Below are positions 11,049 to 61,541 of a stretch of DNA of 64,000 bases, one piece after another. Each line of letters opens with the position of its first letter. Position 1 is the first letter of the stretch. The stretch spans positions 78,368,001-78,432,000 of the forward strand of contig OZ024740.1 of assembly GCA_964016885.1 (NCBI GenBank), written 5' to 3'. The notes below the pieces were generated by a model that had not been told where the DNA came from, searched no databases, and saw only the letters and a program-made list of their open reading frames with translations. A program made the position numbers and the translations under genes. The DNA is from Eledone cirrhosa. Taxonomy: Eukaryota.

Positions 11049-11442
11049 AGCTGGCGCTAAACAACAATAATATCTATTAATCAATGACGACAGTTCTTGG
11101 AAATATAAGCAAGGGAAATTAGCCGAATGAATTTGCCAGAAATGCGGTCGATGCAGTTTCAAAGACACAGACTTTGCAGACTGAAAATAAATTATTTGTA
11201 CTTCTAAATACCGGAATATGCACACCTCATTGCAAACAGCATAAACCTGGAGATATGAAGACTTCAATAGAACCCTCCGCGCGCACACGCACACACACAA
11301 ACAAACAAACACACACACACACACATCCATATATATATATGTATATATATGTGTATATATATATATATATATCTGGTGATTCTATAGACATGTGTATATA
11401 TATATATATATATATATCTGGTGATTCTATAGACATGTTTTA

Positions 11443-15743: not shown

Positions 15744-15787
15744 CAAACTTTCCAGTTAACTAACATCAATGACTGAGACTCAAAGAG
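15744..15787 (+). mobile_element. 44-bp R4/Dong 3' terminus followed by (TAA)n
   Basis: Nearly identical to 36442-36485. Confidence 0.85.
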
Positions 15788-15794
15788 TAATAAC

Positions 15795-15835
<41 letters not shown>

Positions 15836-16085
15836 TTTCATTTATTGGCCACAAGGGCCGACATATAGGGGACAACACAATAGACAGGGACAGTGGGGGT
15901 TTACATAGAGATCGAGTAAGTATAAATAACAAAAAACAAAATAACAATAAAAATACAACAATGAAAGTTCCCCAATAAGAGGGATCACCACCCAGGGTTG
16001 ACTCAAGCACCCCACCAGTCCTGAGCCACCCGACGCTCCTAGGGCACCCGGGAAGGGCACCCCTCTCCTTCTCGAATTCACCAGC

Positions 16086-19000
16086 CTACAGGCGCATGAT
16101 CAGAGTAGGCCCACTCACGCGGGCCATTCTCGCCACATTCACCCACCTTTCAGTAAATGTACTGGGGGGCAGCACTTCTCTCTCCACCCTCACCTTCCTT
16201 TCCAAGTGAAACTTGAAGAAGTTGATGAGGGATTGGCCGAAGAGAAAAGTGTCTGTCTTCAGTCCTTTCAACCTGGTCCACCATGCAACCTCTTTCGCTA
16301 CTGCCACCAGGCAGAGGAAAATTGCCTGCCCTTCCTGACCAAAAGAAGGCGGCGGGTCAATCTTCACTATGGACTCGGACGATAGCCGGATCCGTTCTAC
16401 ACGCGACAATAGCTGTTCGACATAACCCCACAAGTCAGCAATGCACGGACACTGGACGAGTGCGTGCAGAACGGTTTCGTCGCTCTGCGCGCATCTCGGG
16501 CAGGTTCGTCTGACAGCACTTCCGTGCCTGTAGAGTTTATCCCGAACCGGCAGCGCCCCCCGGTAGCACTGCCAAGCGAGGGATTTCTGGAAGTTATCCA
16601 TCGTCCCCGGCTCGAAAGTCCTCCGGAACATACTGGTCAGTTCTACTTCGTTGACGCCCAGAGCCTCTCCTAGTACGTCATCGCACTTGCCCTCCACTAA
16701 TCCTCTATAGAAATCTTGAGTGGAAGTTCCACTGACCGCATTGCACGCCGGGTAGAGGGCAGTGAGAGCCTGGCAACATTCCAGATGCCAGTCGCCCAGT
16801 CTCGGTCTCTTCTTGACCCAGGACTGCAGCTCAGTCAAAGAGATGAGCTGCGGAAAGGCCCGTCTAACAAACGGCGACCACACCTGTTCACCGTTTAGGC
16901 AAAATATCTGGAGATGTCGCAGCCTCAGCGCATGTCTGCGCATCATTAGCCACGGCATGCCCAGCCCTCCACGAAGAGGGTGCTGGCAGCAGATGGACCG
17001 CCTCACCAACGGGACCCGTCCCCTCCACAAAAATTTGAAAAGGAGCCGTTCCAAATTGGCGAGGCGTGGACGGGGGCAAGGCACGACGGTCAGGCGGTAG
17101 TAGATGACGGACGCGATGTACGCGTTCGCCACCTCCGCCCGCCCTTTCAGTGATAGCTTTCTCTCAGCCCATTTCTGGGTGAGGTTGGCTATCCTGCTCG
17201 TCACCTCGTCCCAATTCTTATCCACCTGGAGGTCTGGTCCGAACCAAACCCCGAGCAACTTTACCGGTCCGTCTGTCCAGCGCCCAACGACGCTGTTGGA
17301 CGGCATGGACTTGCCTCTCCAGGTGCCGAGCTGCAAGCCCACCGACTTTTCCGGGTTAAGTTTTGCTCCCGTCAACCTTTCATATTCCTCCAAATGGGTG
17401 CGGATCACCTCGATTTCCGAGGTGTCCGACACCATCACGGTGATGTCGTCCGCATAAGCGGACGCAGCCTTTCTACGTCCCGGTTCGAGCGGGATGCCCT
17501 GCAACAACTCCAGCTTCCGCAGTAGAGGCTCAAGAGTCAATACGTACAGAAGTGAGGAGAGAGGGCACCCTTGACGGACCGATCGAGAGATCTGAAACGG
17601 TTCCGAGAGGTGGCCATTAACTTTGACCACCGAGCAGATGACGCTGTACATTGCAGCGATCCAGCTTCTGAAGACGGGGCCGAAGCCAGCCGCCTCGAGG
17701 ACAGCCTCCAAGTACCGATGGTCGACCCTATCGAATGCTTTCGATTGATCTAAATTGATCAGAGCCCCACCGAAGCCAGGTTTGCACCCAACCCTCTCTA
17801 TGATGTATCGCATGAGGTGGAGGTTGTCGTGTATGGACCTGGTCGGGATTGCGCAAGTTTGCGCCTCCCCAACCAAATCTTTGACGACAAGCGCCAACCT
17901 TTTCGCTAACACCTTGGCCAAAATCTTAAACTCTGTGTTGAGCAGGGTTATGGGCCTGAAATTATCTAGTGTGTCCCTCTTGTTCTCGTCTTTCCTTATC
18001 AGCGTCACTACGCCACGGCTCACAGAACTGGGAATGCTCCCGTTCTGCTGCCAGTTGCAGTAGAGCGCTTCGAGGAGATCGGAGAACAAGTCTGGCATAT
18101 TTACGTAAAGCTCGTAGGGCAGACCATCCAAACCGGGTGACTTGCGACTCGAGCAGCCGACAAGGGCGTCCTGAATTTCGACTGATGTTATCGGCTCTTC
18201 GCAGCGCTCAGCGTCGGCCGTCGAGAGGCGTAGCAAGCCGTCGAGGTAGGGACTGAAGTCCGCCGCCGTCTCCGACTCACCCATCCTCCCGAACAATCGA
18301 GCAAAGTGCTGGCGAAAGGCCTCACACATCTGCTTGGAATCGCTCAGTTCGTGTCCATCTCGATCCGTCAAAGACCGAATTGTGGTTTTATTTCCACGCT
18401 GCGTCTCTGCAAAGCGAGCCCATCGGGCAGCTTTGGTTCCCTCGTTCCTCAGAGCACGCGCCTTAGCTCTGACAATGCAACCTTCGTGTTTCGCATTGAA
18501 GAAATGGTCTAGTGCCATTCTCGCCGCTAGCACGTCTGTTGCAATGCCACTACAAATAGCCTCGTCTAACTTAGCTATCAGCCCCCCCTCCTTTCTATTT
18601 TTCTCTATTGCTACTTCTTTGCTAAATCCTATCGAGGTTGCTCTAATCTCTCTTTTGAGTGCCCCCCACCACCTGTTGTTGACAACCCCCCCTGTCAACT
18701 TTTGCTTAACTAAGTTGTTGACCCGGTCCCTGTAAGCTTTACGTGCCAGAAACGACATGTTTAGCTTCCAGTAGCTAGGTCCTAACCTACGTGTCTTATC
18801 TAGGTCGACCATACAGATCACAAGCTTGTGATCTGAATAGGCAACCGTTTTAAAATGTGGACATCCTACACTATTTCTATCTCTTTTCCTAATGAAAATC
18901 CTATCTATGTACGATCTAGATGACCCTATGCGATTGGTCCAGGTCCATACTGGCGCATTAGGGAAATCTAGTCGGTACCTGTCAGACAGTTGAAACTGGC

Positions 19001-19505
19001 TGATCAGGTACTTGAGGCTTTTGCACCCACCGCTCCTATCAGATACTCCCACACAATCCCAGCGTGCTTCTAAGATGCCATTCCAATCCCCTATTAACAG
19101 TAAAGGGCGAGACGTAAGCAGAAAGTTTTCCAGGCGCCTAAAGAAGTCCGGCCGACCGGCCCCAGTAGGGGCGTAGACGGCCACCAGTCTAAAGGCACCA
19201 CCTTCGCTATTGCTCACGTCCAGGACCACCAACTTTCCGTCAGGATCCCGGAAGATTGACCTTACCTCGAGATCCAGACATTTCCTAAACAGCACAGCCA
19301 CTCCACCTCCCATTCCCGGCCGACTAACAGATGCAAAGATCTGATAATCGTCGAAAATCGGCGCCAGTGCGCGTGTGTCGGAAATTCTGGTCTCGCTGAT
19401 GGCAATTACATCCATTCCTAGTGACCTGAGGTCGTTGAGCAAGTGACCTTGCTTCCAGGGCGACCCCAGGCCACGAACATTTAAACTTCCTACTCTTATG
19501 GCCAT
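16086..19505 (-). CDS. ORF2: APE endonuclease - reverse transcriptase - CCHC finger (1139 aa)
   Basis: SLNVRG, SET, GDWN, SYIDR, SDH; SPGLDG, FRPITLLN, KAFDRV, QGCPLS, YADD; CPRC..ETVLHALVQC. Confidence 0.95.
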   Translation of the reverse strand: MAIRVGSLNVRGLGSPWKQGHLLNDLRSLGMDVIAISETRISDTRALAPIFDDYQIFASVSRPGMGGGVAVLFRKCLDLEVRSIFRDPDGKLVVLDVSNSEGGAFRLVAVYAPTGAGRPDFFRRLENFLLTSRPLLLIGDWNGILEARWDCVGVSDRSGGCKSLKYLISQFQLSDRYRLDFPNAPVWTWTNRIGSSRSYIDRIFIRKRDRNSVGCPHFKTVAYSDHKLVICMVDLDKTRRLGPSYWKLNMSFLARKAYRDRVNNLVKQKLTGGVVNNRWWGALKREIRATSIGFSKEVAIEKNRKEGGLIAKLDEAICSGIATDVLAARMALDHFFNAKHEGCIVRAKARALRNEGTKAARWARFAETQRGNKTTIRSLTDRDGHELSDSKQMCEAFRQHFARLFGRMGESETAADFSPYLDGLLRLSTADAERCEEPITSVEIQDALVGCSSRKSPGLDGLPYELYVNMPDLFSDLLEALYCNWQQNGSIPSSVSRGVVTLIRKDENKRDTLDNFRPITLLNTEFKILAKVLAKRLALVVKDLVGEAQTCAIPTRSIHDNLHLMRYIIERVGCKPGFGGALINLDQSKAFDRVDHRYLEAVLEAAGFGPVFRSWIAAMYSVICSVVKVNGHLSEPFQISRSVRQGCPLSSLLYVLTLEPLLRKLELLQGIPLEPGRRKAASAYADDITVMVSDTSEIEVIRTHLEEYERLTGAKLNPEKSVGLQLGTWRGKSMPSNSVVGRWTDGPVKLLGVWFGPDLQVDKNWDEVTSRIANLTQKWAERKLSLKGRAEVANAYIASVIYYRLTVVPCPRPRLANLERLLFKFLWRGRVPLVRRSICCQHPLRGGLGMPWLMMRRHALRLRHLQIFCLNGEQVWSPFVRRAFPQLISLTELQSWVKKRPRLGDWHLECCQALTALYPACNAVSGTSTQDFYRGLVEGKCDDVLGEALGVNEVELTSMFRRTFEPGTMDNFQKSLAWQCYRGALPVRDKLYRHGSAVRRTCPRCAQSDETVLHALVQCPCIADLWGYVEQLLSRVERIRLSSESIVKIDPPPSFGQEGQAIFLCLVAVAKEVAWWTRLKGLKTDTFLFGQSLINFFKFHLERKVRVEREVLPPSTFTERWVNVARMARVSGPTLIMRL

Positions 19506-19534
19506 GCTGGCAGGATGAATGGGAGAGGAAAGGT

Positions 19535-21445
19535 TTACTTACCTTCCGGGGTCTTGTGAAAGTCGGGTGGTTCGACCTCCATGGTTTGTGGGGTTTCTTT
19601 TGGGAACCCCTTTAATAGTCTTGACGTGGGTTTTACGTTCGGGGTTCCCACATCCCGAGGAAAGCTCTTTCGAATTTCTTTGTATGAAGCGAGCGACATT
19701 CGCATCAGAAGCAAATTATCTGGTACGCGAAATGTGCTCGCTTCAAATGTTTCCCCGTCTTTTTCGATGTTTGTGCTTCGTGCTACATGGGCCATCAATT
19801 CCTTGTTGGCCCTTCTGGCAAGCACGAAGTTTTTAATGTTTTGTTGCTCGGGTTTTATTTGTTCGTGTGATTGTGGTGGTGATAGCTTTGTTAGTGTTGT
19901 TTCTATTGTGTCTGCGTTTGTTGTGGGTGGGGTGTCTGTAGTTTCTGATGTTTGTGTGTCTATTTGTTCTTGTGTCTGTTTAGCTTGTTTGCGTTTGGGG
20001 GATTTTGGTGGTTGTGTTGGTGATGCTGTGGGGAAAATGTTTGTGTGGGTGGTGTGTGTATTTTTTTTTGTGGGGGTGTTTGTGCTTTGTGGATTTCTTT
20101 TTTTTTTGTGTTTTGTTTTTTGTATTTTGGGGGACTTTGGTTTTCCCTCATCTTCACTGCTGGAGGATGAGGGGTCTGTGGCTGTGAGCGTGTTTGTGTC
20201 TGAGTGAGTGTTTATGTTCTTGTTCGTGTGTGTATTTTGGGGGGGAGGGGGAATGGGAGAGCTTTCCTCGTTTCCCCCCTGGGTGTGCAATTTTGGTGGT
20301 TCCATTGTTGACGGTGTTGCTGGTGGTCCTTGTCCCGGCGTCGCCAGCAGTGGAATCTTTCGACCCCTTGCGCTTTTCGGCAGTTGAGGGCAGAAGGCTC
20401 GCAAGTGTGTCGTTTCCCCACAAAGGAAACAATGCGGCCTTTTGCCCTCAGTCATTATATGCAACACCCTCCCGTTTTGGAGGCGGATGTGGTCCGGGAT
20501 TGCTTTTACGTTTTCGGGTCTGATTTGGAGCAGTATCTCCAGATCAACCCCGGACCAGTCGTCCCTGGCAGTTCTCGTTGCCTCTACCGGGACTGTATCC
20601 GTTCCTTCCACGATTACGCAACCCAGGAGCCACCACATATCAAGTCCTGGTGGAATCCTGAGAATGCGCACACGTGCTATTCGTTTTCCCATGTGGGAGG
20701 GGTACATTATAACCTTGCTGGTTTTGCAAGGGGTCATTGAATGCTTCACAGCGAGGGCTTCAGACTTGAACAGCACCGAAACGGTGCCGTATTGCCTGCC
20801 CCTCTCTATGAAGTCTGTGTCCTCTCTGATGTATTTCAGTGCGGCTTCTATATCAGCTTGGGCGATTATCGCTGCCCTCTTTGTCTCTACTGAGATGCAT
20901 CTGAAATGCACCGTTCTTTTTTCCACTGCCTCAATGGCTTCTGCCGGGACAGTTAAGTTTGCCCAGGTCTGCTCTTGATTTATGATTTTCCAGGCCTGGG
21001 CCAACTTTTCCTCTCTGTTGGTTAAGTCGATGCTGTAGCATGGTCTCCTTTTAGCCGCTGCCACAGCAGCGAAGGTGTTCTTGTTGGTGTTGTCACTGTT
21101 GTTGTTCTTGTTGGTGTTGCTGCTGCTATTGCTGTTGTTGTTCTCCCCTGTGTCGTGGTTACCCTCTGTGCTGTTGGCCTTGTTGGTGCTGTTGCTGTCG
21201 CTACTATTACTCTCTGTGCTGTTCGTTTTGTTGGTGCTCTCGCTATTACCACCTTCTGCGCTGTTCGGCTTGTTGGTGTTGGTGTTGTCGCTGTTACCAC
21301 CTTCCGCGCCGCTCGGCCCGTTGGTGCTGGCACTGTCGCTGCTCACATTCGTGCTGGTGGCGCTCCTCGCCTCACCTCTCCTCTCAACGCTCAAGTCGCC
21401 GTTGCACGACAGCAGACCCGCCTCTAGGAGGCGTGGCTCCGCCAT
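19535..21445 (-). CDS. ORF1 (gag-like) with zinc knuckle (636 aa)
   Basis: CFLCGETTHLRAFC (CX2CX4HX4C); low-complexity N/S/T N-terminus; homologous to ORF1 of B and C. Confidence 0.9.
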   Translation of the reverse strand: MAEPRLLEAGLLSCNGDLSVERRGEARSATSTNVSSDSASTNGPSGAEGGNSDNTNTNKPNSAEGGNSESTNKTNSTESNSSDSNSTNKANSTEGNHDTGENNNSNSSSNTNKNNNSDNTNKNTFAAVAAAKRRPCYSIDLTNREEKLAQAWKIINQEQTWANLTVPAEAIEAVEKRTVHFRCISVETKRAAIIAQADIEAALKYIREDTDFIERGRQYGTVSVLFKSEALAVKHSMTPCKTSKVIMYPSHMGKRIARVRILRIPPGLDMWWLLGCVIVEGTDTVPVEATRTARDDWSGVDLEILLQIRPENVKAIPDHIRLQNGRVLHIMTEGKRPHCFLCGETTHLRAFCPQLPKSARGRKIPLLATPGQGPPATPSTMEPPKLHTQGGNEESSPIPPPPQNTHTNKNINTHSDTNTLTATDPSSSSSEDEGKPKSPKIQKTKHKKKRNPQSTNTPTKKNTHTTHTNIFPTASPTQPPKSPKRKQAKQTQEQIDTQTSETTDTPPTTNADTIETTLTKLSPPQSHEQIKPEQQNIKNFVLARRANKELMAHVARSTNIEKDGETFEASTFRVPDNLLLMRMSLASYKEIRKSFPRDVGTPNVKPTSRLLKGFPKETPQTMEVEPPDFHKTPEGK

Positions 21446-22060
21446 GTTTTTTTGAGAAAAAAATTATTTTTTTTTTTTCAAAATAAAGTTCAAATATTTG
21501 GGCCAAAAGGCCCAAATATTATGAGTTATTCCTTCACAGGATACACATTAATGTCTTATAATGCTTCAGCGGTACAAAAAATAAACAATTCCCTACAATT
21601 AATCCTCAAAAAATTGCTTACTCACGGAGCTTCAAAAAACGTACATTCACTTTCGTCAATAATAATAATAATAATAATAATGATTTCTTTATTAACCACA
21701 AGGGTTTACATAAAGTAGACATTAAGGACAGTGCAGGACAATGCAGGACGGTACAAATGGGCATTTCTGCGTGTAAAAAACAAAAACAGAGGATGTAACA
21801 AAAATAACAATGATTTCTTTATTAACCACAAGGGTTTACATAAAGTAGACATTAAGGACAGTGCAGGACAATGCAAGACGGTACAAATGGGCATTTCTGC
21901 GTGTAAAAAACAAAAACAGAGGATGTAACAAAAAATAACAATGAAAAATTCCCCAATAGGGGGAGACTTCGGAGGGACATTTGTGGAGAAAGCCCAGTAA
22001 AAAGCCACAATGACCCTGACCACCAAGGCAAGTGCCCTCTCCCAGTTTTCCACCTTTAAT

Positions 22061-25000
22061 TTACAGATATATGCTCAGAGTAGGCCCATTCACTCGGGCC
22101 ATTCTTGCTTCTCTCACCCATCTTTTAACAAAATGCTGGGAAGAGAGCACTTCCCTCTCTACTCTGATTTTCCTTTTCAAATGAAATTTGAAAAAGTCAA
22201 TCAGAGCATCACCGAAGAGGTAAGTGCTCGTCTTCAGCCCTTTCAAACGTGTCCACCATACTATCTCTTTCGCCATGGCCACCAGGCAGATAAAAACTGC
22301 CTGCCCTTCCCGGCTAAAGGAGGAGGGCGGGGCAATCCTCACGATGGACTCAGATGATAGCCGGATCCGTCCTAAACGCGACAGCAGGTGTTCGACATAA
22401 ACCCACAAGTCAGCAATTTTCGGACACTGGACGAGTGCGTGCAGGACGGTTTCGTCGCCCTGCGCGCATCTCGGACATGCCCGGCTGACGGCACCTCCAT
22501 GCCTGTAGAGTTTATCCCGAACTGGCAAGGCTCCTCGGTAGCACTGCCAGGCCAGAGATTTCTGGAAGTTGTCCATAGGCCCTGGCCCGAAAGTTCTTCC
22601 GAAGAGATTGGCTAGTTGATTTTCGTCGACGCCTAGAGTTTCCCCAAGTACGTCGTCGCTCTTCCCCTCCACTAATCCTCTATAGAACGCCGAGGTGGAG
22701 TTTCCACCGATCACATTGCCCGATTGGTCGAGGGCTCTGAGCGCCTGAAGACATTCCAGTCTCCAGGTGCTCCCTCTCGGTCTTCGCTTGACCCAGGACT
22801 GCAGCTCCGTCAAGGAAACGAGCTGGGGAAACACGCGTCTAGCAAACGGCGACCACACCTGATCACCGTCGAGGAAGAGGTGGAGATGTCGTAGCCTGAG
22901 CGCGTGCCTGCGCATCATCAGCCACGGCATGCCCAGCCCTCCACGTAGCGGGTGTTGACAACAGATGGACCGCCTGACCATCGGAGCGCGTCCCTTCCAC
23001 AAAAAGCGAAAGAGCAAACGCTCCAGCGCAGTCAGGCGAGGCTTAGGACAAGGTACGACGGTCAGGCGGTAGCAGATGACGGACGCGATGTACGCGTTAG
23101 CCACCTCCGCTCGACCTTTCAGGGATAGCTTCCTCTCGGCCCATTTCTGGGTGAGAGAAGCCACCCTGCTCGTCACCTCGTCCCAGTTTTTGTCCGTCTG
23201 GAGGTCCGGACCGAACCAGACCCCTAGCAATTTAACCGGTCCGTCCGTCCAGCGTCCGACGACGCTGTTGGACGGCATGGACCTGCCTCTCCAGGTGCCG
23301 AGCTGCAGGCCCACTGACTTTTCCTGGTTGATCATTGCTCCTGTCACCGCTTCGTATTCTCTTAGTGTAGTGCCGATCGCCTCGATGTGTTTGGCGTTCG
23401 ACACCACTACGGTGACATCGTCCGCATATGCTGATACGGATCTTCCGCATCCTAGTTCGCGCGGGACCCCCCTCAACGTCTCCAGTTTGTGCAGTAATGG
23501 CTCGAGAGTCAATACGTACAAGAGGGACGAGAGGGGACATCCTTGGCGGACCGAGCGCATGATGTTGAACGGTTCCGACAGGTGACCGTTCACTCTCACC
23601 ACAGAGCAGATGTCGCTGTGCATGGCAGCGATCCAGCCTCTGAAGACGGGCCCAAAGCCAGCCGCCCTCAGGACTGCCGCTAGGTAACGATGGTCGACCC
23701 TATCGAAAGCTTTCGACTGATCTAAATTGATCAAGGACCCACCCGTGCCAGGTTCCCTAGCTACCCTCTCTACGATGTATCGCATGAGGTGGAGGTTGTC
23801 GTGGATGGATCTGTCGGGAATGGCGCATGTCTGCGCCTCTCCCACCAGACCACCAACGACAAGCGCCAACCTCTTTGCTAGCACCTTGGCCAAAATCTTA
23901 AACTCTGTGTTTAGCAGAGTTATGGGCCGGAAATTTTCTATGTTATCCCCCTTGTTCGGATCCTTTCTCAGCAGTGCCACCGCTCCTCGGCTCACAGAAC
24001 TGGGAATTCTCCCGTTCTGTTGCCAGTTGCAGTAGACGTCCGCCAAGAGGCCTCCGAACAAGTCTGGCATCTGTACGTAAAGTTCATAGGGCAGACCATC
24101 CAAACCAGGCGATTTACCCCTTGTGCAGCCAGTCATTGCCTCTCTTACTTCAGCGGCTGTTATCGGCTTTTCGCAACACTTCGCCTCAGTGGCCGAGAGC
24201 CGCGGCAGTCCGTCGAGGTAGACACTAAAGTCCATCCCTCTACCCGGCCCCCCGCTGTCCCCGAACAGCTGAGCGAAGTGTCGCTGAAAAGCTTCACACA
24301 TTTGCCCGGGATCGAGTAGCATGCGCCCGTCGTGGTCCACCAAAGACCGGATCGTGGCTTTGTTGCCACGACGCGCCTCCGCCACTCGGGCCCATTGAAC
24401 GGCTTTCGTCCCCTCGTGTCTGAGAGCACGCACCCTAGCTCTGACAACGCAGCCTTCGTGCTTTGCATTGAAGAATTGGTCAAGGGCCAATTTCGCCGCA
24501 AGCACGTCGGTCGCATAAGCGCCTCGTCTAATTTTCTAACTAATTCTCCCTCTGCTCTATTTTTCTCTATTGCTAAAGCCTTACTAAACCTAATCGATTC
24601 TATTCTAATCGCTCTTTTCAGAGCAAACCACCACTTGTTGTTGACGATGGCCCCCGTCAACGCCCGCTTAACTAGTTCGCTAATCCGGTCTCTGTAGGCC
24701 TTGCGCGCTGGTAAGGACGCGTTTAGCTTCCAGTAGCCGGGTCCTCGTCTATGAAGCCTATCTAAGTCAAGCACACAAGTCACGAATTTGTGGTCCGTGT
24801 AGCTGACTATCTTGAATTGTGGACAGCCTATGCTAGACCTATCTATTTCCCTACAAAATACTCTATCTAGATATGATCTGGATGACCCTATGCGGTTTGT
24901 CCAAGTCCACATTGGCACATTCGGGAAATCCAATCGGTACCTGTCAGACAGTTCAAAACGTCTGAGCAGGTTGTTGAGGCTCTTGCACCCTCCACCCCTA

Positions 25001-25470
25001 TCCGCTAATCCCACACAGTCCCAGCGTGCATCTAAGATCCCGTTCCAGTCGCCCACTAACACTAAAGAGCGGGACGTTCCAAGAAAGGTCTCCAGACGCC
25101 GGAAGAAATCAGGCCGCCCTGCTCCTGTCGGGGCATAGACGGCCACTAGCCTGAAAGCTTTCCCGTCTCCGCTGGTCATGTCCAGCACCACCAGCTTACC
25201 CTCTGGGTCCAGGAAGATGGCCCGTATGGCGAGATCCAAACCTCTCCGAAAAAGCACAGCAACTCCTCCACCCGATCCAGGACGGCTGGGAGATGCGTAC
25301 ACATCGTAGCCGCCGAAGATCGGTGCGAAGGACCGTGCTTCGGAGATTCTGGTCTCGCTGATGGCCACTACATCTATGTTTAGTGACCTGAGGTCGTTGA
25401 GCAGGTGACCCTGCTTCCATGACGACCCCAAGCCACGCGCATTTATGCTGCCTATTCTGAGTGAGGTCAT
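22061..25470 (-). pseudogene. Copy B ORF2, one frameshift
   Basis: ORFs 24160-25470 and 22061-24505 join across a ~10-nt deletion at ~24516 relative to copy C. Confidence 0.9.
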
Positions 25471-25505
25471 GTTTAAAATAGAGTGGAAAAGATGGGAAAG
25501 ACCAC

Positions 25506-27602
25506 TTACCGTACTTTTGGTAGAGGAGGGATGGTTTTTACATCCCTTTTCACTTGATCGTCTGGTGAAGGGACCGTTGAATCGTCCCTTCGGCTGGTCG
25601 TCGGCTCTTCTAAGAGAATGTCTGAATATACTCTTCGATTGATGGTTCCTCCTAGGTCCCTGAAATCACCAACTGCGTTGGGGAATTTCGTTTTAATGTT
25701 TGTGTATTGTTTCTGAGCTATTTTTAGCAGTCTTATGTTAGTTGGCGTTTTGATTGGTGCTGGTATTATGTAGTCCTGTTGTGAAATGTCTGTGTGTTCA
25801 ATTATGTAAGTCATTAGTTTCTTGTTGTGTGTGTTTATTGCCGTGCATTTGTTTTTCTGGGGGTGGGGTGTGGTTCTGCTATTTTCTTGTCGTTGTTGCT
25901 GGGTGTGTGTGTTTTGTTGTTGTGTTTGCGATGTTGGTGCTTGTGGTGGTGGTGTTGAAGGTGTTGTTGGCGGTGGGGTTGTCGCCGGTGGTGATGGTGG
26001 TGCTGGTGTGGGTGGTGATGGTGTTGGTGGTGTTGCTGCTGTGGGTCTCTTTGCTGTAGACTTTACCCTTTTCTCATTTCTTTCCTCCCTTTTCAAAGGC
26101 GACGATGCGCTGCTTCTGCGTTTGTGCCTTCTTGCGACCTTTTGCCATCCCTCTCCCACCTCACACTCCATGTCTGATTCTGTGAGGTCGGGGAGGGGTA
26201 CCAGCTCCACTCTTTCACTTGTTGTTGTTGGTGATGTTTGCACTGGAGTCTCTGTTGCAGCTGCATTTGGTATTGCTGTTGTTGTTGTTAATATTTCCAC
26301 TGCTGCTGCTGTTTTTGATTTCCGTGGAGTGGGTATGGGTGCCACGGACCTATCGTTCCTGGTTGCCGCTTGTCCTGTTGCTGGTAGCCGTGGAGCCGGA
26401 TTCGGAAGGAGGGGGGTTTTCTCCTTTCTCAGGGTCTTCTCGTTGCAGAAGGCCCTGAGGTGAGTCTTCGATCCACAGCGAAAGCATTTCGGGCGTTTGC
26501 CCTCAACACTTATGGGCAGTTGAGTGCCGTTATCGAAGTCTATCACATCCGGGATAGCTTCGATGCACTCCTGGTTGGTTTGGATTAGCATCTCAATGGA
26601 GGAGCCGACCCAATCTTCTCTTACTTTTTTCTGTACTTGCAGTACAGTTGTTTTGTCCTCGATTCCGACGAGGACAGACGCGGTCAGCCAAGAAGGGGTC
26701 ATTCCGGGGGGGACGTGGGTCAGTTTGACCCTCACAATTTTTTGCCCGCAGTAGGAGGGCACCAACACCATTTCCTCGCTCCTTAGGGTCACTACTGATT
26801 GGGCCTTTGCCTCCTGGGGTGTGGCAAAAAGTACGTCTACGGTGGCATATTTTTTGCCTCGGGTGATGTGCGTTTTCCGCTGCCACACAGACCCCAAGGC
26901 TTTTTGTATTTGGGCCTCTGTGGCTCTTTCCACCCTACGGGATTTTGTACTTACTGTACGGTACGTGACCGTACAGTGCTCTTGGGTTTCGAAAAATTTT
27001 TCCGCTGCCTTGCAGATTGCTCGGTGTCCGTTCTTTGTCACCATCTTCTTCGCTTCCTCTAATTCCTCATTTGTTATGAGGATTGTTTCCAAGTTTTTCG
27101 CAATACCTGCAAATGAGATTGGTTTTTCTCTGCTGTTGTTGTTGTCGTCAGAGCTGCTGGTACTTTTGTTGTTGCTGCAGGTACTACGACTACTGCCTCC
27201 GCCGCTGTTGCTGTGGTTGTTGTTGGTGTTGCTGCTGCTAATGCTGTTGTTGTTTATGCTGCTGGTGATGCTGTTGCGGCTGCTACTGTTGTTTTCATTG
27301 TCACTGTTGCTGTTGTTATTACGGCTGCTACTGCTATTATTCCTGACGTCAGACGAATGAACTGGGTTTTCGTATTTCCCGCACACCTGTTTCGTCGCTG
27401 TCGTCGTCGTCGTGGAGAAACCTTGCACGCTTTGCACGAGACTTTTCTTTTCTTTCGTCACTTGCGAAAGAGAAGGGAGGGAGAGAGACACATTTAAAGA
27501 AGGGAGGGAGAGAGACAATCTTCTCTCTGCTGTAGTGATGATTGAGGAAGAAGAAGACGGAATGAGTGGGAGTGACGTATGAAATTTCTTTTTCGTAGCC
27601 AT
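25506..27602 (-). CDS. Copy B ORF1 with zinc knuckle (698 aa)
   Basis: CFRCGSKTHLRAFC; uninterrupted frame. Confidence 0.9.
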   Translation of the reverse strand: MATKKKFHTSLPLIPSSSSSIITTAERRLSLSLPSLNVSLSLPSLSQVTKEKKSLVQSVQGFSTTTTTATKQVCGKYENPVHSSDVRNNSSSSRNNNSNSDNENNSSSRNSITSSINNNSISSSNTNNNHSNSGGGSSRSTCSNNKSTSSSDDNNNSREKPISFAGIAKNLETILITNEELEEAKKMVTKNGHRAICKAAEKFFETQEHCTVTYRTVSTKSRRVERATEAQIQKALGSVWQRKTHITRGKKYATVDVLFATPQEAKAQSVVTLRSEEMVLVPSYCGQKIVRVKLTHVPPGMTPSWLTASVLVGIEDKTTVLQVQKKVREDWVGSSIEMLIQTNQECIEAIPDVIDFDNGTQLPISVEGKRPKCFRCGSKTHLRAFCNEKTLRKEKTPLLPNPAPRLPATGQAATRNDRSVAPIPTPRKSKTAAAVEILTTTTAIPNAAATETPVQTSPTTTSERVELVPLPDLTESDMECEVGEGWQKVARRHKRRSSASSPLKREERNEKRVKSTAKRPTAATPPTPSPPTPAPPSPPATTPPPTTPSTPPPQAPTSQTQQQNTHTQQQRQENSRTTPHPQKNKCTAINTHNKKLMTYIIEHTDISQQDYIIPAPIKTPTNIRLLKIAQKQYTNIKTKFPNAVGDFRDLGGTINRRVYSDILLEEPTTSRRDDSTVPSPDDQVKRDVKTIPPLPKVR

Positions 27603-28085
27603 GTTGTTTTTTGTTTAAAATGAAATTTTGGGTACAAAACCCCAATAACTGGTTATTTAACCCCGAAGGGCCAAATAACGGACAGAAAGACCCCTCTCAC
27701 GAGGAGGAGGGTGTCTTTATCAACAATTTGGTTCAAGTTTTAAACAATTTACAATTGTTTTAACGGTTAAAAATTACTATACCTTACAGAGCCGAGCCTC
27801 CGTCAACCATGGCATTCAATAATAATAATAATAATAATAATGTTTTCTTTATTAACCACAAGGGTTTACATAAAGTAGACATTAAGGACAGTACAGGACA
27901 ATACAGGGCGGTACAAATGGGCATTTCTGCGTGTAAAAAAAACAGAGGTTGAAATAAAATAACAAAGAAAAATTCCCCAATAGGGGGAAGACTTCCGAGG
28001 GACATTTGTGGAGAAAGCCCATTAAAAGACCACAGTGGCCCTGACCACCAGGGCAAGTGCCCTCTCCCAGTTTTCCACCTTTAAT

Positions 28086-31051
28086 TTACAGACACATACT
28101 CAGAGAAGGCCCATTCATTCGGGCCATACTTGCTTCTCTCACCCATCTTTCAACAAAATGCTGGGAAGAGAGCACTTCCCTCTCTACCCTGATTTTCCTT
28201 TTCAAATGAAATTTGAAAAAGTTAATCAGGGCATCACCGAAGAGGTAAGTGCTCGTCTTCAGCCCTTTCAAACGTGTCCACCATACTATCTCTTTCGCCA
28301 TGGCCACCAGACAGATAAAAACTGCCTGCCCTTCCCGGCTAAAGGAAGAGGGCGGGGCAATCCTCACGATGGACTCAGCTGATAGCTGGATCCGTCCTAC
28401 ACGTGACAGCAGGTGTTCGACATAAACCCACAAGTCAGCAATGCTCGGACACTAGACGAGTGCGTGCAGGACGGTTTCGTCGCCCTGCGCGCATCTCGGA
28501 CATGCCCGGCTGATGGCACCTCCATGCCTGTACAGTTTATCCCGAACTGGCAAAGCTCCTCGGTAGCACTGCCAGGCCAGGGATTTCTGGAAGTTGTCCA
28601 TAGGCCCCGGCCCGAAAGTCCTTCCGAAGAGATTGGCTAGTTGATTTTCGTCGACGCCTAGAGTTTCTCCAAGTACGTCGTCGCTCTTCCCCTCCACTAA
28701 TCCCCTATTTCTGGGTGAGAGAAGCCACCCTGCTCGTCACCTCGTCCCAGTTTTTGTCCGTCTGGAGGTCTGGACCTAACCAGACCCCTAGCAATTTAAC
28801 CGGTCCGTCCGTCCAGCGCCCGACGACGCTGTTGGACGGCATGGACCTGCCTCTCCAGGTGCCGAGCTGCAGGCCCACTGACTTTTCCTGGTTGATCATT
28901 GCTCCTGTCACCGCTTCGTATTCTCTTAGTGTGGTGCCGATCGCCTCGATGTGTTTGGCGTTCGACACCACTACGGTGACATCGTCGGCATATGCTGACA
29001 CGGATCTTCCGCATCCTAGTTCGCGCGGGATCCCCCTCAACGTCTCCAGTTTGTGCAGTAATGGCTCGAGAGTCAATACGTACAATAGGGACGAGAGGGG
29101 ACATCCTTGGCGGACCGAGCGCATGATGTTGAACGGTTCCGAAAGGTGACCGTTCACTCTCACTACAGAGCAGATGTTGCTGTGCATGGCAGCGATCCAG
29201 CCTCTGAAGACGGGCCCAAAGCCAGCCGCCCTCAGGACTGCCGCTAGGTAACGATGGTCGACCCTATCGAAGGCTTTCGACTGATCTAAATTGATCAAAG
29301 ACCCACCCGTGCTAGGTTCTCTAGCTACCCTCTCTACGATGTATCGCATGAGGTGGAGGTTGTCGTGGATAGATCTGTCGGGAATGGCGCATGTCTGTGC
29401 CTCTCCCACCAGACCACCAACGACAATCGCCAACCTCTTTGCTAGCACCTTGGCCAAAATCTTGAACTCTGTGTTTAGAAGAGTTATGGGCCTAAAATTA
29501 CCTATGTTATCCCCCTTGCTCGGATACTTTCTCAGCAGCGCCACCGCTCCTCGGCTCACAGAGCTGGGAATTCTCCCGTTCTGTTGCCAGTTGCAGTAGA
29601 CGTCCGCCAAGAGGCCTCCGAACAAGTTTGGCATTTGTACGTAAAGTTCATAGGGCAGACCATCCAAACCAGGCGATTTACCCCTTGTGCAGCCAGTCAT
29701 TGCCTCTCTTACTTCAGCGGCTGTTATCGGCTTTTCGCAACACTTCGCCTCAGTGGCCGTAAGCCGCGGCAGTCCGTCGAGGTAGACACTAAAGTCCATC
29801 CCTCGATCCGGCCCGCCACTGCCCCCGAACAGTTGAGCGAAGTGTCGCTGAAAAGCTTCACACATTTGCCCGGGATCGAGTAGCATGCGCCCGTCGTGGT
29901 CCACCAAAGACCGGATCGTGGCTTTGTTGCCACGATGCGCCTCCGCCACTCGGGCCCATTGAACGGCTTTCGTCCTCTCGTGTCTGAGAGCACGCACCCT
30001 AGCTCTGACAACGCAGCCTTCGTGCTTTGCATTGAAGAATTGGTCAAGGGCCAATTTCGCCGCAAGTACGTCGGTCGCGATGCCTTTGCTAAGCGCCTCA
30101 TCTAATTTTCTAACTAGTTCTCCCTCTGCTCTATTTTTCTCTATTGCTAAAGTCTTACTAAACCTAATGGACTCTATTCTAATTGCTCTTTTCAGAGCAA
30201 ACCACCACTTGTTGTTGACGATGGCCCCCGTCAACGCCCGCTTAACTAGTTCGCTAATCCGGTCTCTGTAGGCCTTGCGCGCTGGTAAGGACGCGTTTAG
30301 CTTCCAGTAGCCGGGTCCTCGCCTATGAAGCCTATCTAAGTCAAGCACACAGATCACGAATTTGTGGTCCGTGTAGCTGACTATCTTGAATTGTGAATTG
30401 TGGACAGCCTATGCTAGACCTATCTATTTCCCTACAAAATACTCTATCTAGATATGATCTGGATGACCCTATGCGATTTGTCCAAGTCCGCATTGGTACA
30501 TTCGGGAAATCCATTCGGTACCTGTCAGAGAGTTCAAAACGTCTGAGCAGGTTGGTGAGACTCTTGCACCCTCCTTCCCTATCCACTAATCCCACACAAT
30601 CCCAGCGTCCATCTAAGATCCCGTTCCAGTCGCCCACTAACACTAAAGAGCGGGACGTTTCAAGAAAGGTCTCCAGACGCCGGAAGAAATCAGGCCGCCC
30701 TGCTCCTGTCGGGGCATAGACGGCCACTAACCTGAAAGCTTGCCCGTCTCCGCTGGTCACGTCCAGCACCACCAACTTACCTTCTGGGTCCAGGAAGATG
30801 GCCCGTATGGCAAGATCCAAACCTCTCCGAAAAAGCACAGCAACTCCTCCCCCCGATCCCGGACGGCTGGGAGATGCGTACACATCGTAGCCGCCGAAGA
30901 TCGGTGCGAAAGCCTGTGCTTCGGAGATTCTGGTCTCGCTGATGGCCACTACATCTATGTTTAGTGACCTGAGGTCGTTGAGCAGGTGGCCCTGCTTCCA
31001 TGACGACCCCAAGCCACGCGCATTTATGCTGCCTATTCTGAGTGAAGTAAT
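28086..31051 (-). pseudogene. Copy C ORF2, disrupted
   Basis: Start codon reads ATT; 7-nt duplication at ~30390; ~460-bp deletion at ~28704; nonsense codon at 28452. Confidence 0.9.
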
Positions 31052-31085
31052 GTTGAAAAGGAGTGGAAAAGATGGGAAAGACCAC

Positions 31086-33076
31086 TTACCTTACTTCTCG
31101 TAGGGGAAGGACGGTTTTTCCATCCTTTTCACTGCTTGTGGCCTCCTCAGGAAAGATGTCCTTATAAATCCTCCTGGAGAGTGCTTGTCAGAAGTCTCCG
31201 ATGTCTTTGGGGAATTTTTGTTTTAGTGTCATGTACGTTTTCTGTGTGATGCGAGTGATTTGTATGTGTGGAGGTGGTGTGAATTTTGGGGTTGTTGTGT
31301 AGTCTTTTTCTGTGATGCTGGTGTTGTGTTGGATGTAGTGTAATAATTGCTTGTTGTTCAAATTTAATGCTGTGTAGTGTGTATCGTTTTGGTTGTTTTG
31401 TTTTGTTTGCGTTTGTTGTGGGTTTGTTTCTGTTTCGCATTTTGGTGACTTTTGTGGTGTAAGTGATGGTGGTGTTGGAGTTAATGATGGTGATGGTGTT
31501 GGTGTTTGGGTTGATGGGGTTGGTGATGCTGGTGTGGATGGTGGCATATCTGTCCTAACTTTTTTGTTTCTTAGTTTATTTGTTTCCCTCTGTATTTTGT
31601 TTTTGGAGGGGGAAGGAAGAGAATTTTTTCTTTTTTGGTTTCTTTTTTTTTTCCGGATATCGTTTCCCACTCCTCGTCGTCACAATCTGTCTCCAGTTGT
31701 GATAGGCCGGGGAGTGGAAAATCCTCCACAGGCGTTAGTTTTGGTTGTGGCGTGGTGGATGGTGTAGGCGCTGGTGCTAGTTCTGAAGCGTTGGGTGGTG
31801 GTGGTGTTGGTTTTGCTGGTGGTGGTGGTGGTGTTGGTTTTGCTACTGTTGCTGGGGTTGTTGCTGTTATAGTTGCTTCTGTTGTTGCTGCTACAGTTGT
31901 TGCTGCCATCTCTGCTACTGGTGGTGTTGATGGTTGTGTCACTGGGGTGGGTAGTAGAGGTGGCCTCAACCTTTTAGCCTGAGGGAAGAAAGCCCTTAGG
32001 TGGGTTCCTTCACCACAAACGACACACCTAGGTCTTCTGCCCTCGACAATTACCGTGAGGTGGCTGCCGTCAGTGAGGTCTATTACCTCTGGGATCTCCT
32101 CAATGCTTTTTTGGTCCGCTTGGATCAGGAGCTCCATCCCAGATCCGGACCAGTTCTCCTGCTTTTCTTTTGCTATTGCTATTATTTTTGTGTTGGCTTC
32201 GATGCCGGCGAGGACAGCCGATATTAGCCAGGGAATTTCGATGGCCGGTGGAACGTGGGTCACCCTGATATTTACGAGTCTCTGGCCACAATAGCTTGGG
32301 ACGAGTGTGAAGTCGTCACTTCTTAATGGGGCCATGGAGCGTTCTCTAGCCTCCTCTGGTGTTTCAAAGAACACGTCCACGGTTCCATACTTCTGCCCAC
32401 GTCTGATGTGGGTTTTTCTTGCCCACACATGTCCCAAAGCTTTTTGGATTTGGGACTCGGATGCCCGTTCCACTCGGCGCGATTTTACATTTATCGTTCG
32501 ATACGACACGGTGCATAGGCGCCGATGCTCCATTTTATTAGGGGGGGGGCTGACTCTGTACCCATCTTTCTTTACCATTTGTTTGGCATTTTCTAAATCC
32601 TCCTGAGTTACCGTAAATGCTTCGAACTGTTTTGCTACTATTGCAAAACTGAGGGTCGTTTTTATAATGTCATTGTTGTTGTTGTTGCTATCGTTATTTG
32701 TGTTAATATTAATTTTAGTTTCAGTTGTGGTGGTGGTGACGTCAGTCGTCTTTGGTGGGGAAGAGTCCATTTTGCTTGATTTCATTTCGACATCACGAGT
32801 TAATTTATTTTTTTCTTCTTTTGTTTCTGTTGTCGCGGTGGTGGTGGGGGTGGTGGTTGTCGCGGTGGTGGTGGTGGTGGTGGAGGCTTTAACACCTGCA
32901 GTCATTGGTAATGGCGGGAAATGAATGTCTGCCTGAGACAAATTTAAAATATTGCTACTGCTTATATTTTTTTTTGTATTGGCAAACGTAGTAACATTTA
33001 CAATGGTGGTGTCGGTGTGAGGTGTTAATTTGTGAGGAAGGCTTTCAGCTGCTTGGTGCAGAGGTGAATTAGCCAT
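31086..33076 (-). pseudogene. Copy C ORF1, disrupted
   Basis: CVVCGEGTHLRAFF knuckle; frameshift in a homopolymer at ~31645; TGA at 31188; frame resumes LSRRIYKDIFPEE..PLREVR*. Confidence 0.85.
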
Positions 33077-33263
33077 TTTTTTCAAAGAAATTTTTTGATA
33101 ATAATAAAAGTTTAAATTTTGGGCACAAGGCCGCAATCTTTTTGGGAAACAATGGACACCCAACAGTTAACAATAAAATTTTCCATAAATGACAATTTTT
33201 AACAAACGGAAATAACAAACCTTTGCGGAGCTCACGATGATACGATTTACTACGTAGGTCGCC

Positions 33264-33325
<62 letters not shown>

Positions 33326-36300
33326 GGTATGAAGTCCTGGGAAACAGAGTTAACATCAACTGGAGAATCCTTGGGAAGCGTGAAGATCAAGAGAGGTATC
33401 TTCCAGGGGGATAGTCTGTCCCCTCTGTTGTTTGTCCTTGCCCTGATGCCCCTGACCAGTGTATTGCGAAAAGTGAGAGCAGGATACAGAGATACGGCCA
33501 CTGAGGAGATGAATGCTGACGGGCTAGGACAAGATTTGGTAGATATCCTAAACTTAGTGGTAGATGAATTGAACAATGATAGTGGGAGACCTATGAACCT
33601 AAGATTTGTAGACAGGAAAAAGTTAAAAGAAACAACAGCTAAGGTAAACAAAGTCATCCCATACCTTGAGGCGAGGAGCCTTCACCAGTGCAACAATATC
33701 CTCAAAGCAACAGCAAATACGGTGAGGAAACTACTTGGTATAAAAGCGAGAGGAAACAACAGACAAGAAAGAGCAGAGCCTTGGTGGAAGAAACGACTGA
33801 GTGGTCAAATCAGGGAAATGAGAAATGACATTGGAAAGCTTGAGTCCCTACTGAATGGGACACTAAAAAACATAGACACTAAAAATAGACTGGAAATAAA
33901 GTACAAAACTAGGATGAAAAAGCTAAATATTATCATAGAGGAACTGAAGTAACGCATTGTAGCAAAAAGTGCAAAAATCAGGCGATACGAGAACAGAGTC
34001 AGCCAGTATAGACAGAACCGCATGTTCGACAATAACCAGAAGATGCTGTTTGGACAGCTTGAAGGGAAAGAAAGAGGCAACGACTTGATCCCTGAGGCGG
34101 AACAAACTAAAACATTCTGGAGAGGAATATGGGAGCAGGATGTTAAACATAATGACCAGGCAGTGTGGATTGAGACAGTACAGAAGGAGATCAGTGAACA
34201 GGCACGCCAACAAACTGATTTGAGTATCACAGTTGAAACTCTTAAGGGGCAGGCCAAAAAACTAACCAACTGGAAATCACCTGGCCCAGATGGTGTGCAG
34301 GGGTATTGGATTAAAAACATAACATCCCTCCACCCGAAACTGACAACCATGTTCAATGACTGCTTGATGTCAGGTGAGGTACCAGAGTGGTTGACAAAAG
34401 GTACCACAGTTCTGATAATGAAAGACCGAATCAAGGGTAATGATGTTACCAACTATAGACCTATCACATGTCTGTCCGTAATGTGGAAACTGTTGACAAG
34501 CATTATGTCTGAGGAAATCTACCATCACCTCCACACAAACAACTTGTTACCGGACGAACAGAAAGGATGCCGAAAGAAGTCACGTGGTACAAAGGACCAG
34601 TTACTTATTGATAAGATGGTAATGAGGAATTGCAAGAGGAGACACACTGGTCTTGCCATGGGATGGATAGACTACAAAAAGGCATTTGACATGGTGCCTC
34701 ATTCTTGGATCACCAAAAGCCTGGAGATCTTCAAGGTGGCAGATAACATCAGACAGTTGTTGGGCAAAAGTATGAAGTCCTGGGAAACAGAGTTAACATC
34801 AATTGGAGAATCCTTGGGAAGCGTGAAGATCAAGAGAGGTATCTTCCAGGCAGATAGTCTGTCCCCTCTGTTGTTTGTCCTTGCCCTGATGCCCCTGACC
34901 AGTGTACTGCGAAAAGTGAGAGCAGGATACAGGTTGGGAAAGGGAGGGCTTACCATCAATCACCTCCTCTTCATGGACGATCTTAAGCTCTTCGGGAAGA
35001 GTGAGAAGGAGTTGGATGTGCTTGTTGACAATGTCCGTATTTTCAGCAATGATATATGTATGCAATTTGGTATTAGTAAGTGTGGAGTCATTGAGATGAG
35101 GAGGGGTAAGTTGAGCAGAAGTAACGGAATCCAGATACCAACAGGTGAGATGATAAAAGAAATTGACTCTGAAGAAGGATACAAGTATTTGGGCGTTCTG
35201 GAGGCTGATGACATCAAGAACAAAAAAATGAAGGAATTGATAAGAACTGAATACCTTCGGAGAGTAAGGAGCGTATTAAAGTCACATCTGAACAGTAGGA
35301 ATGCCATAAGTGCAGTAAATTCCCGAGCTGTGTCTATTATTAGGTACAGTGCGGGAATTCTGAGATGGAATGTTGCTGAACAAAAAGAAATGGATAGGAA
35401 GACTAGGAAGCTATTGACTATCTACAATATGTTCCACAAGAGGAGTGATGTCGATAGACTCTACTTAAGGAGATCTGAGGGTGGAAGAGGTCTTATCAGC
35501 ATAGAGGACTGTGTTCAGATGGAGAAAAACAACCTACACAAATACGTGACTGATAGTAAGGAGCCAATGCTCAGAGCTGTACTGAAGGAGAGGACAATAG
35601 GCCAGGGGATGTCCAAGGAGGAAATAACATCAAGGAGAAAGAGCAGCCTTCAGGGAAAACCCCTTCATAGTACCTTCTTTGAGAAAACTGAATTTAGAGA
35701 TCCACAGACATGGAACTGGTTGAAAAGAGGAGACCTTAAAAAGGCTACAGAAGGAATGTTAATGGCTGCGCAGGAGCAGGCCCTCAAAACGAAGTGGTTG
35801 AAACACCACATTTACAAGGAGGAGGCTAGCCCACTGTGCAGGATCTGTGGAGAGAGAGAGGAGACTGTGGCTCACATTGTATCCGAGTGTAAACACCTAG
35901 CCCAGACTCACTATAAGGGCTGGAGACATGATGTGATGGGCAGGGTGATCCACTGGCACCCATGCAAAGTAAACAATTTACCACATTCTGAGAAGTGGTA
36001 TGAGCATAAGCCAGAGGCGGTGATAGAAAACGATCAGGTGAAAGTGCTGTGGGATTTTAGGATACAGACAGACAAGAAACTGGAACACAATAGACCTGAC
36101 CTGGTGGTTTTGGACAAAGAAAAAAGATCGTGTCTGATTGTGGATGTGGCCTGCCTATTCGACACGAGAGTGCAAGAGAAGGAGAGGGAGAAAATTAACC
36201 GATACCAGGACTTAAAGTGGGAGGTAAAAAGGATTTGGAACTGCCATGAAACCAAAGTGATCCCGATTGTCATAGGCGCACTAGGGACTATCTCAAAAAG

Positions 36301-36484
36301 TTTCCAGGGATGGTTAAAGAAAATTGGCCCCTTCACGCTTTTTGGAACGCTTCAAAAGGCATGCTTGCTGGGAACAGCAAGAACCCTCCAATACGTCCTG
36401 AATATCTGAGGCTGCAGGTAGTGGCTTGATATTCATCTCAACAAACTTTTCAGTTAACTAACATCAATGACTGAGTCTCAAAGA

Positions 36485-36485
<1 letters not shown>
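33326..36485 (+). mobile_element. R4/Dong-clade LINE family 1, 5'-truncated (RT - CCHC - REL endonuclease)
   Basis: WKSPGPDG, YRPITCL, DYKKAFD, LFMDDLKL, CRICG..HIVSEC, RHD, RPDL; in-frame stop at 33950; (TAA)n on both sides. Confidence 0.95.
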
Positions 36486-36516
<31 letters not shown>

Positions 36517-47234: not shown

Positions 47235-47235
47235 C

Positions 47236-47354: not shown

Positions 47355-47375
47355 ATTATTATTATTATTATTATT

Positions 47376-47593: not shown

Positions 47594-47594
<1 letters not shown>

Positions 47595-52661: not shown

Positions 52662-52672
52662 CATTGTTATTA

Positions 52673-61536: not shown

Positions 61537-61541
<5 letters not shown>

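Follow-up and report, generated by a model that had tools for sequence, protein, structure and literature searches.

The stacked elements

We analysed a window of 64,000 nucleotides from Eledone cirrhosa (assembly GCA_964016885.1, contig OZ024740.1, positions 78,368,001 to 78,432,000 of the forward strand; coordinates below count from the first base of this window), a stretch of AT-rich eukaryotic DNA dense in microsatellites. Within it lies an array in which two unrelated kinds of non-LTR (long terminal repeat) retrotransposon share one three-base repeat: three elements of L1/Tx1 type, here called A, B and C, are arranged head-to-tail on the minus strand, all with intact 5' ends and all in a single (AAT)n tract, and elements of Dong/R4 type stand at both sides of them (Table 1). 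This work concerns the preference of the L1/Tx1-type lineage for (ATT)n, and how such a stack may have grown.

The three elements share one plan. Their 5' untranslated regions (UTRs) measure 187–215 nt and begin with G, and the second of their two open reading frames (ORFs) carries an apurinic/apyrimidinic endonuclease (APE) domain and a reverse transcriptase (RT), with a zinc-binding domain in A and B (Pfam matches Exo_endo_phos, RVT_1 and zf-RVT). In A, ORF1 (21445–19535) holds a CCHC knuckle and ORF2 (19505–16086) has the order APE, RT and zinc finger; B also has one such knuckle in ORF1, and that of C is degenerate. The catalytic motifs of ORF2 are present in all three, split by a frameshift in C. 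An earlier note on this DNA had described three full-length copies of one family. Three copies with intact 5' ends do lie in the tract, although A is the only intact one: it has no breaks, B has one (the ORF2 frameshift) and C has four, namely one in ORF1 near 31575 and, in ORF2, a frameshift near 30400, a 461-bp deletion near 28707 and one stop.

The single family did not survive comparison of the copies. At the nucleotide level ORF2 is 77% identical between A and B. Between B and C identity is 96% over ORF2 and all that follows it, and no alignment is possible upstream. The 5' halves of all three cannot be aligned as DNA, and their ORF1 cores share 38% (A/B), 34% (A/C) and 53% (B/C) amino acid identity. 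Judged from these figures, A, B and C represent two or three families rather than one and, because A and B are only 77% alike and B and C have different 5' halves, they must be three separate insertions. A stack of this kind could also come from tandem duplication, unequal crossover or an assembly error, as the 96% identity of B and C over ORF2 and the 3' UTR and the 130-bp tandem duplication within B might suggest; given the distance between A and B, the dissimilar 5' halves and ORF1 cores, and the deletions private to C, we regard such an origin as highly improbable. Tandem duplication of a single family, in particular, is ruled out by the A/B identity and by the unalignable 5' halves of B and C.

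A single ATT, at an internal stretch that resembles ATT, forms the junction of the 130-bp duplicate of the 3' end of B; the duplicate looks like the product of re-priming by pairing, or of slippage. Another junction is seen on comparing B with C (25550–27817 against 31130–33263), where unrelated 5' UTRs and ORF1 cores of 53% identity are attached to the nearly identical ORF2, with the switch just before ORF2; the 5' half seems to have been exchanged or rapidly replaced. The otherwise dissimilar 5' UTRs have in common a short G-rich/CCCAAA motif 30–60 nt before the ATG (about 21490–21510, 27625–27640 and 33115–33135), which in C resembles the 3' hairpin motif described below, and a GCTCYG word at +26 to +33. 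RNA-gene heads or ribozymes were sought at the 5' ends: nowhere in the window did an Rfam model reach its gathering score, no tRNA was found, and the 5' UTRs of the stacked elements fold no better than shuffles.

By the N-terminal APE domain, the RT and the C-terminal zinc-binding domain of ORF2, the three elements can be placed in the L1 group of non-LTR retrotransposons. The closest solved relative of ORF2 is human L1 ORF2p (PDB 8sxt, E 6.6e-56, residues 4–852), well ahead of R2 (E 1e-21), a coarse comparison given that PDB is poor in other APE clades. Duplications of the length seen in the L1 group (about 10–25 bp) are found here at an old relative (19–21 bp, see below) and are not visible inside the pure repeat. 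In a tree with 10 relatives, A, B, C and the relative P0001 form one group (99/100). There was no named Tx1 reference among the 24 hits, and membership of the Tx1 clade, which by RT phylogeny unites Xenopus Tx1L, Keno, Kibi and Koshi, is tentative. Tx1 ORF1s have RNA-binding domains and a CCHC knuckle rather than the ORF1 of mammalian L1. ORF1 gave no Pfam family at cut-off here, and its Atlas look-alikes are zf-CCHC and ZCCHC3-type RNA-binding clusters (0.91–0.93), a lead only; the literature search found no link between ZCCHC3 and Tx1. Aligned with the chimera 2v0r, which we take to carry the Tx1L loop, the endonuclease hairpin of A shows two gaps, and none against L1, so that it is not of Tx1L length. 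The nine relatives that have the endonuclease domain carry the longer loop, and the Tx1 clade is not defined by loop length.

Table 1. Retrotransposon copies, repeat tracts and short interspersed elements (SINEs) in the window
Feature	Position	Strand	Remarks
Element A, L1/Tx1-type	15834..21657	-	5824 bp; 5' UTR, ORF1, ORF2, 3' UTR; both ORFs open
(AAT)8 spacer	21658..21681	.	exactly 24 bp; 5' flank of A; probable duplication
130-bp tandem duplicate of the 3' end of B	21682..21811	-	one substitution and one 1-bp indel; joined via a single ATT
Element B	21812..27817	-	6006 bp; ORF1 27602-25506 open; ORF2 25470-22061, one frameshift near 24515
(AAT)8 spacer	27818..27841	.	exactly 24 bp; 5' flank of B
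Element C	27842..33263	-	5422 bp; ORF2 and 3' UTR 96% like B, 5' UTR and ORF1 different
(AAT)20 tract	33264..33325	.	62 bp; 5' flank of both C and the Dong-like copy
Dong/R4-type element, 5'-truncated	33326..36485	+	RT, CCHC, PD..D restriction-like motif; one in-frame stop
(TAA)10	36486..36516	.	right edge of array 1
(AAT)13	15795..15833	.	between Dong-like stub and 3' end of A
Dong-like 3' UTR stub	15744..15794	+	44 bp and start of TAA/CAA tail; 5' flank (GAA)17, not (TAA)n
Old 5'-truncated relative (relic)	9931-10472 within 9910..10491	+	3' terminus as in A, B and C; no ATT tail
A-like 3' stub	47235..47354	+	120 bp; 91% in 87 bp; (AT)n on 5' side, (ATT)7 on 3' side
(ATT)7 spacer	47355..47375	.	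21 bp, between A-like stub and SINE
SINE copy	47376..47562	+	ATT both sides in sense; 3' hairpin shared with Tx1-like elements
SINE copy	10861-11048, with duplications 10838..11071	-	exact 23-bp duplication, begins ATTATT in SINE sense
SINE copy	43829-44025, with duplications 43811..44043	-	exact 18-bp duplication, begins ATTATT in SINE sense
Further SINE-like copies	2496-2684, 9387-9597
Second R4-type family, 5'-truncated	47594..50046	-	41% amino acid identity to Dong-like copies; (TAA)n both sides in sense
Dong/R4-type copy, 5'-truncated	50098..52602	-	open frame; (TAA)n both sides in sense
Dong/R4-type 3' fragment	52662..53317	-	99% like the 33326 copy; (TAA)n both sides in sense

Target, orientation and spacing

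Tx1-like and R4-like copies were collected by self-comparison and translated search of the window, and set in sense orientation. The 5' flank lies in (ATT)n in three of the five Tx1-like copies, these being all three full-length ones (A, B and C, with runs of 8, 8 and 20 units), and each of these flanks ends in ATT before the first G, in one phase. The 3' flank lies in (ATT)n in four of the five, again all in one phase. Three copies of five, from one window, is more than the 20% that PMC4494074 uses as a criterion of target preference. In the host background (ATT)8 stands upstream of 0 of 70,558 stranded positions and (ATT)4 of 2, figures that are low by construction, the arrays having been masked. 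The R4-like copies, read in their own sense, have a 3' flank in (TAA)n in all five cases and a 5' flank in (TAA)n in four. Read against the repeat, A, B and C thus face opposite to all five Dong/R4-type insertions of the window, and the split is perfect both for the 5' flanks that lie in the repeat (3 vs 4, Fisher p 0.029, three rows dropped) and for the 3' flanks (4 vs 5, p 0.008, the relic dropped). For flanks lying in the repeat, then, the rule of the earlier note, by which Tx1 sense strands read (ATT)n and Dong sense strands (TAA)n, was confirmed. Its extension to the mirror-image array at 47.2–53.4 kb stands in part: the only Tx1-type member there is the 120-bp stub and, its 5' flank being (AT)n, this array supports only the 3' orientation for Tx1.

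ATT beside a retrotransposon may be a target or merely a tail copied with the element. The relic near 9.9 kb, whose ORF2 is 73% like that of A, settles this point. It is bounded by an exact duplication of 19–21 bp (9910–9930 and 10471–10491) and has the same 3' end as A, B and C without an ATT tail; the array junctions therefore owe their ATT to the target. A templated ATT tail is thereby ruled out for the Tx1-like elements, and the view of ATT as target, already taken in the earlier note, is upheld by the relic together with the ATT 5' flanks of all three full-length copies.

The A/B and B/C spacers are both exactly (AAT)8, as had been noted before, and a third spacer, between the A-like stub and a SINE, is slightly shorter; spacers of 24, 24 and 21 bp are similar to the duplications measured elsewhere in the window (18, 19–21 and 23 bp). 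Their size fits with their being target-site duplications, as we infer them to be. Two equal spacers would be expected by chance with a probability of about 0.07, or in one case out of three if duplications come as 18, 21 or 24 bp, and the length of exactly 24 is by itself weak evidence. More telling than equality is size, since under uniform nicking both spacers would be 24 bp or less with a chance of 0.08 in a tract of 13 units and of 0.02 in one of 20 units. Decay follows the order C > B > A (four breaks, one and none), as predicted by a model in which nicking takes place at the edge of the repeat.

These observations can be set against a passive sink, without any sequence targeting, in which open or neutral AT-rich chromatin gathers insertions, ATT is produced by slippage or by tails, and the equal spacers are a coincidence. 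Microsatellites and repeats do abound in the window, the 5' sides of two of the five Tx1-like copies lie outside (ATT)n, and equal spacers would occur by chance about once in 14 cases. A sink would have to accommodate the relic without an ATT tail, the agreement in strand and phase of all six array junctions, and the perfect orientation split between the two element types; moreover, the window has many more tracts of (AT)n, (TG)n and (AC)n than of (ATT)n, yet only the stub at 47235–47354 touches one among the five Tx1-like copies. We consider the sink improbable.

Several points weigh against a preference for (ATT)n with growth of the stack by edge nicking. All data are from a single window, in which one tract holds the three key copies. 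Among the five Tx1-like copies, two have no ATT at their 5' side: the stub at 47.3 kb and the relic at 9.9 kb. The relic was inserted in a TATC-like repeat, with no ATT at all; the lineage thus also enters other sites, and its preference for (ATT)n is loose, not absolute. Duplications within a pure repeat are not directly visible, and the spacer test has no power for a tract of only 8 units. The 5' spacer of C is 62 bp rather than 24, and the A/B spacer adjoins the 130-bp duplicate and not the 3' end of B proper. The difference in age between B and C is borderline: amino acid changes number 19 in C vs 8 in B (p 0.052), CpG changes 10 vs 3 (p 0.09) and all substitutions 49 vs 37 (p 0.24), and the ORF1 break of C lies among A runs and is possibly a sequencing error. 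Finally, the endonuclease hairpin considered in the next section is no better conserved between A and B than other segments of the enzyme.

Nicking, pairing and a SINE with the same 3' hairpin

Long interspersed elements (LINEs) insert by target-primed reverse transcription. Under this mechanism, the opposite orientations mean that Tx1-like elements were primed from a nick in the AAT strand, and Dong-like elements from one in the ATT strand. With somewhat more confidence than doubt, we propose that a small L1/Tx1-type lineage prefers (ATT)n, that its enzyme leads by nicking at the edge of an ATT run, and that the stack grows on its 3' side. The APE domain would nick the AAT strand at or beside the edge of the run, and reverse transcription would start at the 3' end of the element, where a small hairpin would serve for recognition. 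About 8 repeat units would then be duplicated through a second nick, some 18–24 nt further on. If the run starts where an earlier copy has its 3' end, the next insertion would fall one duplication length behind that end and leave a fresh edge behind itself, and growth at the 3' side would give the order C, then B, then A. In these tracts Dong/R4-type elements would use the opposite strand for priming, producing mixed, back-to-back arrays. The idea of the earlier note that unrelated endonucleases nick opposite strands is retained for the priming nicks; the choice may be that of the enzymes, or pairing of the RNA could select the strand. Its further idea, that each duplication regenerates a target, fits the spacer sizes and the order of decay and is qualified by the borderline B/C asymmetry and by the long spacer of C.

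Strand choice may well be made by the endonuclease itself, with pairing between RNA and target as a live rival. The loop of the endonuclease hairpin is identical in A, B and C, though the domains of A and B are 72% identical overall, and it differs from theirs in all nine outside relatives that have the domain; the same hairpin affects target recognition in R1Bm and TRAS1 (PMC1919474). A single-sequence fold of the endonuclease scored too low to be used (predicted local distance difference test score, pLDDT, 37). In the rival account the endonuclease, like that of mammalian L1, has no more than a loose preference for AT and the site is chosen by the RNA, with target and orientation inherited from the flank of the source copy. 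An AATAAA poly(A) signal lies 6–7 nt from the element end in all five Tx1-like copies, and from this position transcripts may carry a few copied AUU units, so that read-through transcripts from a source copy lying in (ATT)n could end in AUU repeats able to pair with the nicked AAT strand. The joining of the 130-bp duplicate of B via one ATT is what re-priming by pairing would give, the relic has the same terminus yet another repeat as target, and annealing of RNA to target has been reported for SART1 and R1Bm (PMC7265360). Set against this are the identical endonuclease hairpin, spacers near one duplication length, which suggest that little or no AUU was copied, and the change of target that follows endonuclease swaps in TRAS1/SART1 (PMC7265360, PMC1919474); the relic, for its part, has lost its endonuclease and may have had another specificity. 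On balance we see selection of the site by the RNA as possible, if rather doubtful. Less likely again, to our mind, is its fullest form, in which the RNA carries the target choice: a read-through 3' end would pass on the source repeat, ATT- and TATC-homing branches would arise from one enzyme, the 5' half would be freely swapped, and the same machinery would be lent to a very common SINE via the 3' hairpin. In that case an ATT tract would renew itself as a landing site, entered from one direction by APE elements and from the other by restriction-like ones, and such tracts would be a main source of the insertion clusters in the genome. As both ORFs of copy A are open, the question of enzyme or RNA pairing as the determinant of strand and site can be put directly to the test.

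The SINE in question is a 188-bp SINE-like repeat with five near-complete copies and two fragments in the window. Duplications could be measured for two copies, and in both they start exactly at an ATTATT run; two other near-complete copies gave no clean duplication. A first test by local alignment of SINE and Tx1 ends was unconvincing, many window positions scoring equally high. When anchored at the end (positions set by eye, with one base of slack), the SINE 3' end agrees with that of the relic at 17–18 of 24 bases in four of five copies, a level reached by 0 of 70,038 background words; agreement with the ends of A, B and C is modest (11–16 of 24). All eleven ends, SINE and Tx1-like, can be fitted to a common hairpin, its stem of 4 bp and its loop of five bases, in which 90% of cells pair and three of four pairs change on both sides, against 15–53% in slid controls, although in this test the sequences are related and the structure was read from those same sequences. 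Stability of the hairpin beyond that of shuffles was not seen (z -0.67 to 0.40). One copy (47376–47562) lies 21 bp behind the Tx1 stub, in the same orientation. The shared 3' hairpin, the matching duplication lengths and the position of this copy indicate that the SINE was probably moved, as a passenger, by the L1/Tx1-type lineage, as far as one window can tell.

Neighbouring elements and known systems

The Dong/R4-type elements fall into two families that lie in one tract with the same orientation. Both have an RT followed by CCHC and PD..D restriction-like endonuclease motifs, without APE; PD-(D/E)xK-type Pfam matches are weak and below cut-off (E 0.04–0.1), and the best 120 of 2284 hits included no informative names. 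The Dong/R4 label is presumptive, given by motif likeness and by the target. None of the copies has a 5' end. The copy at 33326 opens with 164 bp (33326–33489) that repeat its own RT region (34770–34932, 97.5% identical), which looks like a template jump during reverse transcription.

Next to array 1, a decayed piece (15150–15742), presumably the 3' part of an RTE-like element (to judge by the look of its translation), ends in a (GAA)17 tail at 15692–15742 that directly abuts the Dong-like stub; searches within the window found no flanking duplication around this piece or around the whole arrays. At 40015–40878, (TCT)44 is followed by a 242-amino-acid frame with no Pfam match, which by its motif looks like the GIY-YIG end of a Penelope-like element. 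The minus strand at 59180–59700 holds a G+C-rich decayed reading frame with an RT-like YLDD word, and 61537–62476 is a tandem duplication with a period of 467 bp and 99.6% identity, either very recent or an assembly artefact.

In its repeat types (Dong-R4, L1-Tx1, RTE and SINEs) the window resembles the octopus repertoire (PMC13282606, PMC8967140). Among the recently active families of Octopus vulgaris, Dong-R4 and L1-Tx1 are both listed, with no word on targets in the available part of PMC13282606. The literature searched, including the available parts of PMC3747384, PMC4758252, PMC8869645, PMC3706591 and PMC9004415, mentioned neither an (ATT)n target for any Tx1 family nor a mixed Tx1/Dong array; Repbase and Dfam lay outside this search, and a prior description is possible. 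The Dong side is familiar: Dong, DongAg and DongBg occupy (TAA)n in silkworm, mosquito and snail (PMC3812793, PMC3774820), the same repeat and the same sense reading as in the Dong-like copies here, with DongBg coming from a mollusc, and our data add nothing new to it except the two R4-type families in one tract.

With human L1 ORF2p the stacked elements share APE, RT and the length of the endonuclease hairpin. Human L1 has a poly(A) tail and nicks at T-runs; A, B and C, in contrast, show no tail, and have a CCHC-type ORF1 and a conserved 3' hairpin.

Microsatellite targets are known in the Tx1 clade, namely (TC)n for Kibi, (TTC)n for Koshi and (TTCC)n or (TTTC)n for crocodilian families (PMC4494074). 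All of these are two-ORF, APE-bearing elements of the L1 group that prefer a microsatellite, like those described here, and they differ in the target, (ATT)n not being listed for Tx1 in the available part of that paper, and the host here is an invertebrate. The present lineage works like Kibi and Koshi and may belong with them. The meeting of two endonuclease types on one target recalls Keno (Tx1 clade, APE) and Utopia (restriction-like endonuclease), both found in U2 snRNA genes, with tandem insertion reported for Utopia (PMC4640811). In their case the 3' flank and the orientation are the same and the target is an RNA gene, whereas here it is a microsatellite entered in opposite orientations. 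Opposite directions within one simple repeat are in turn known from TRAS1 and SART1 in (TTAGG)n (PMC7265360), which are both R1-clade APE elements at telomeres; the endonucleases here are unrelated and the repeat is interstitial. For the SINE, the nearest parallel is SINEU, which moved with Tx1-Mar (PMC4494074), among SINE/LINE pairs with shared 3' ends (PMC3747384). SINEU likewise follows a Tx1-type element and shares its target preference, whereas the link here consists of a 3' hairpin and duplication lengths within one window; no octopus pair of this kind appeared in the literature searched.

Should the proposed preference be right, (ATT)n would join the targets of Tx1-type elements, and the array would offer a natural pair of unrelated endonucleases working on opposite strands of one three-base repeat; should the SINE link hold, the likely mover of an abundant SINE would have been named. 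With Kibi and Koshi, Keno and Utopia, and TRAS1 and SART1, each ingredient has a precedent, so that to the specialist the finding is neat rather than startling: what is new here seems to be the target, for a site-preferring retrotransposon of a kind already known, and not the system.

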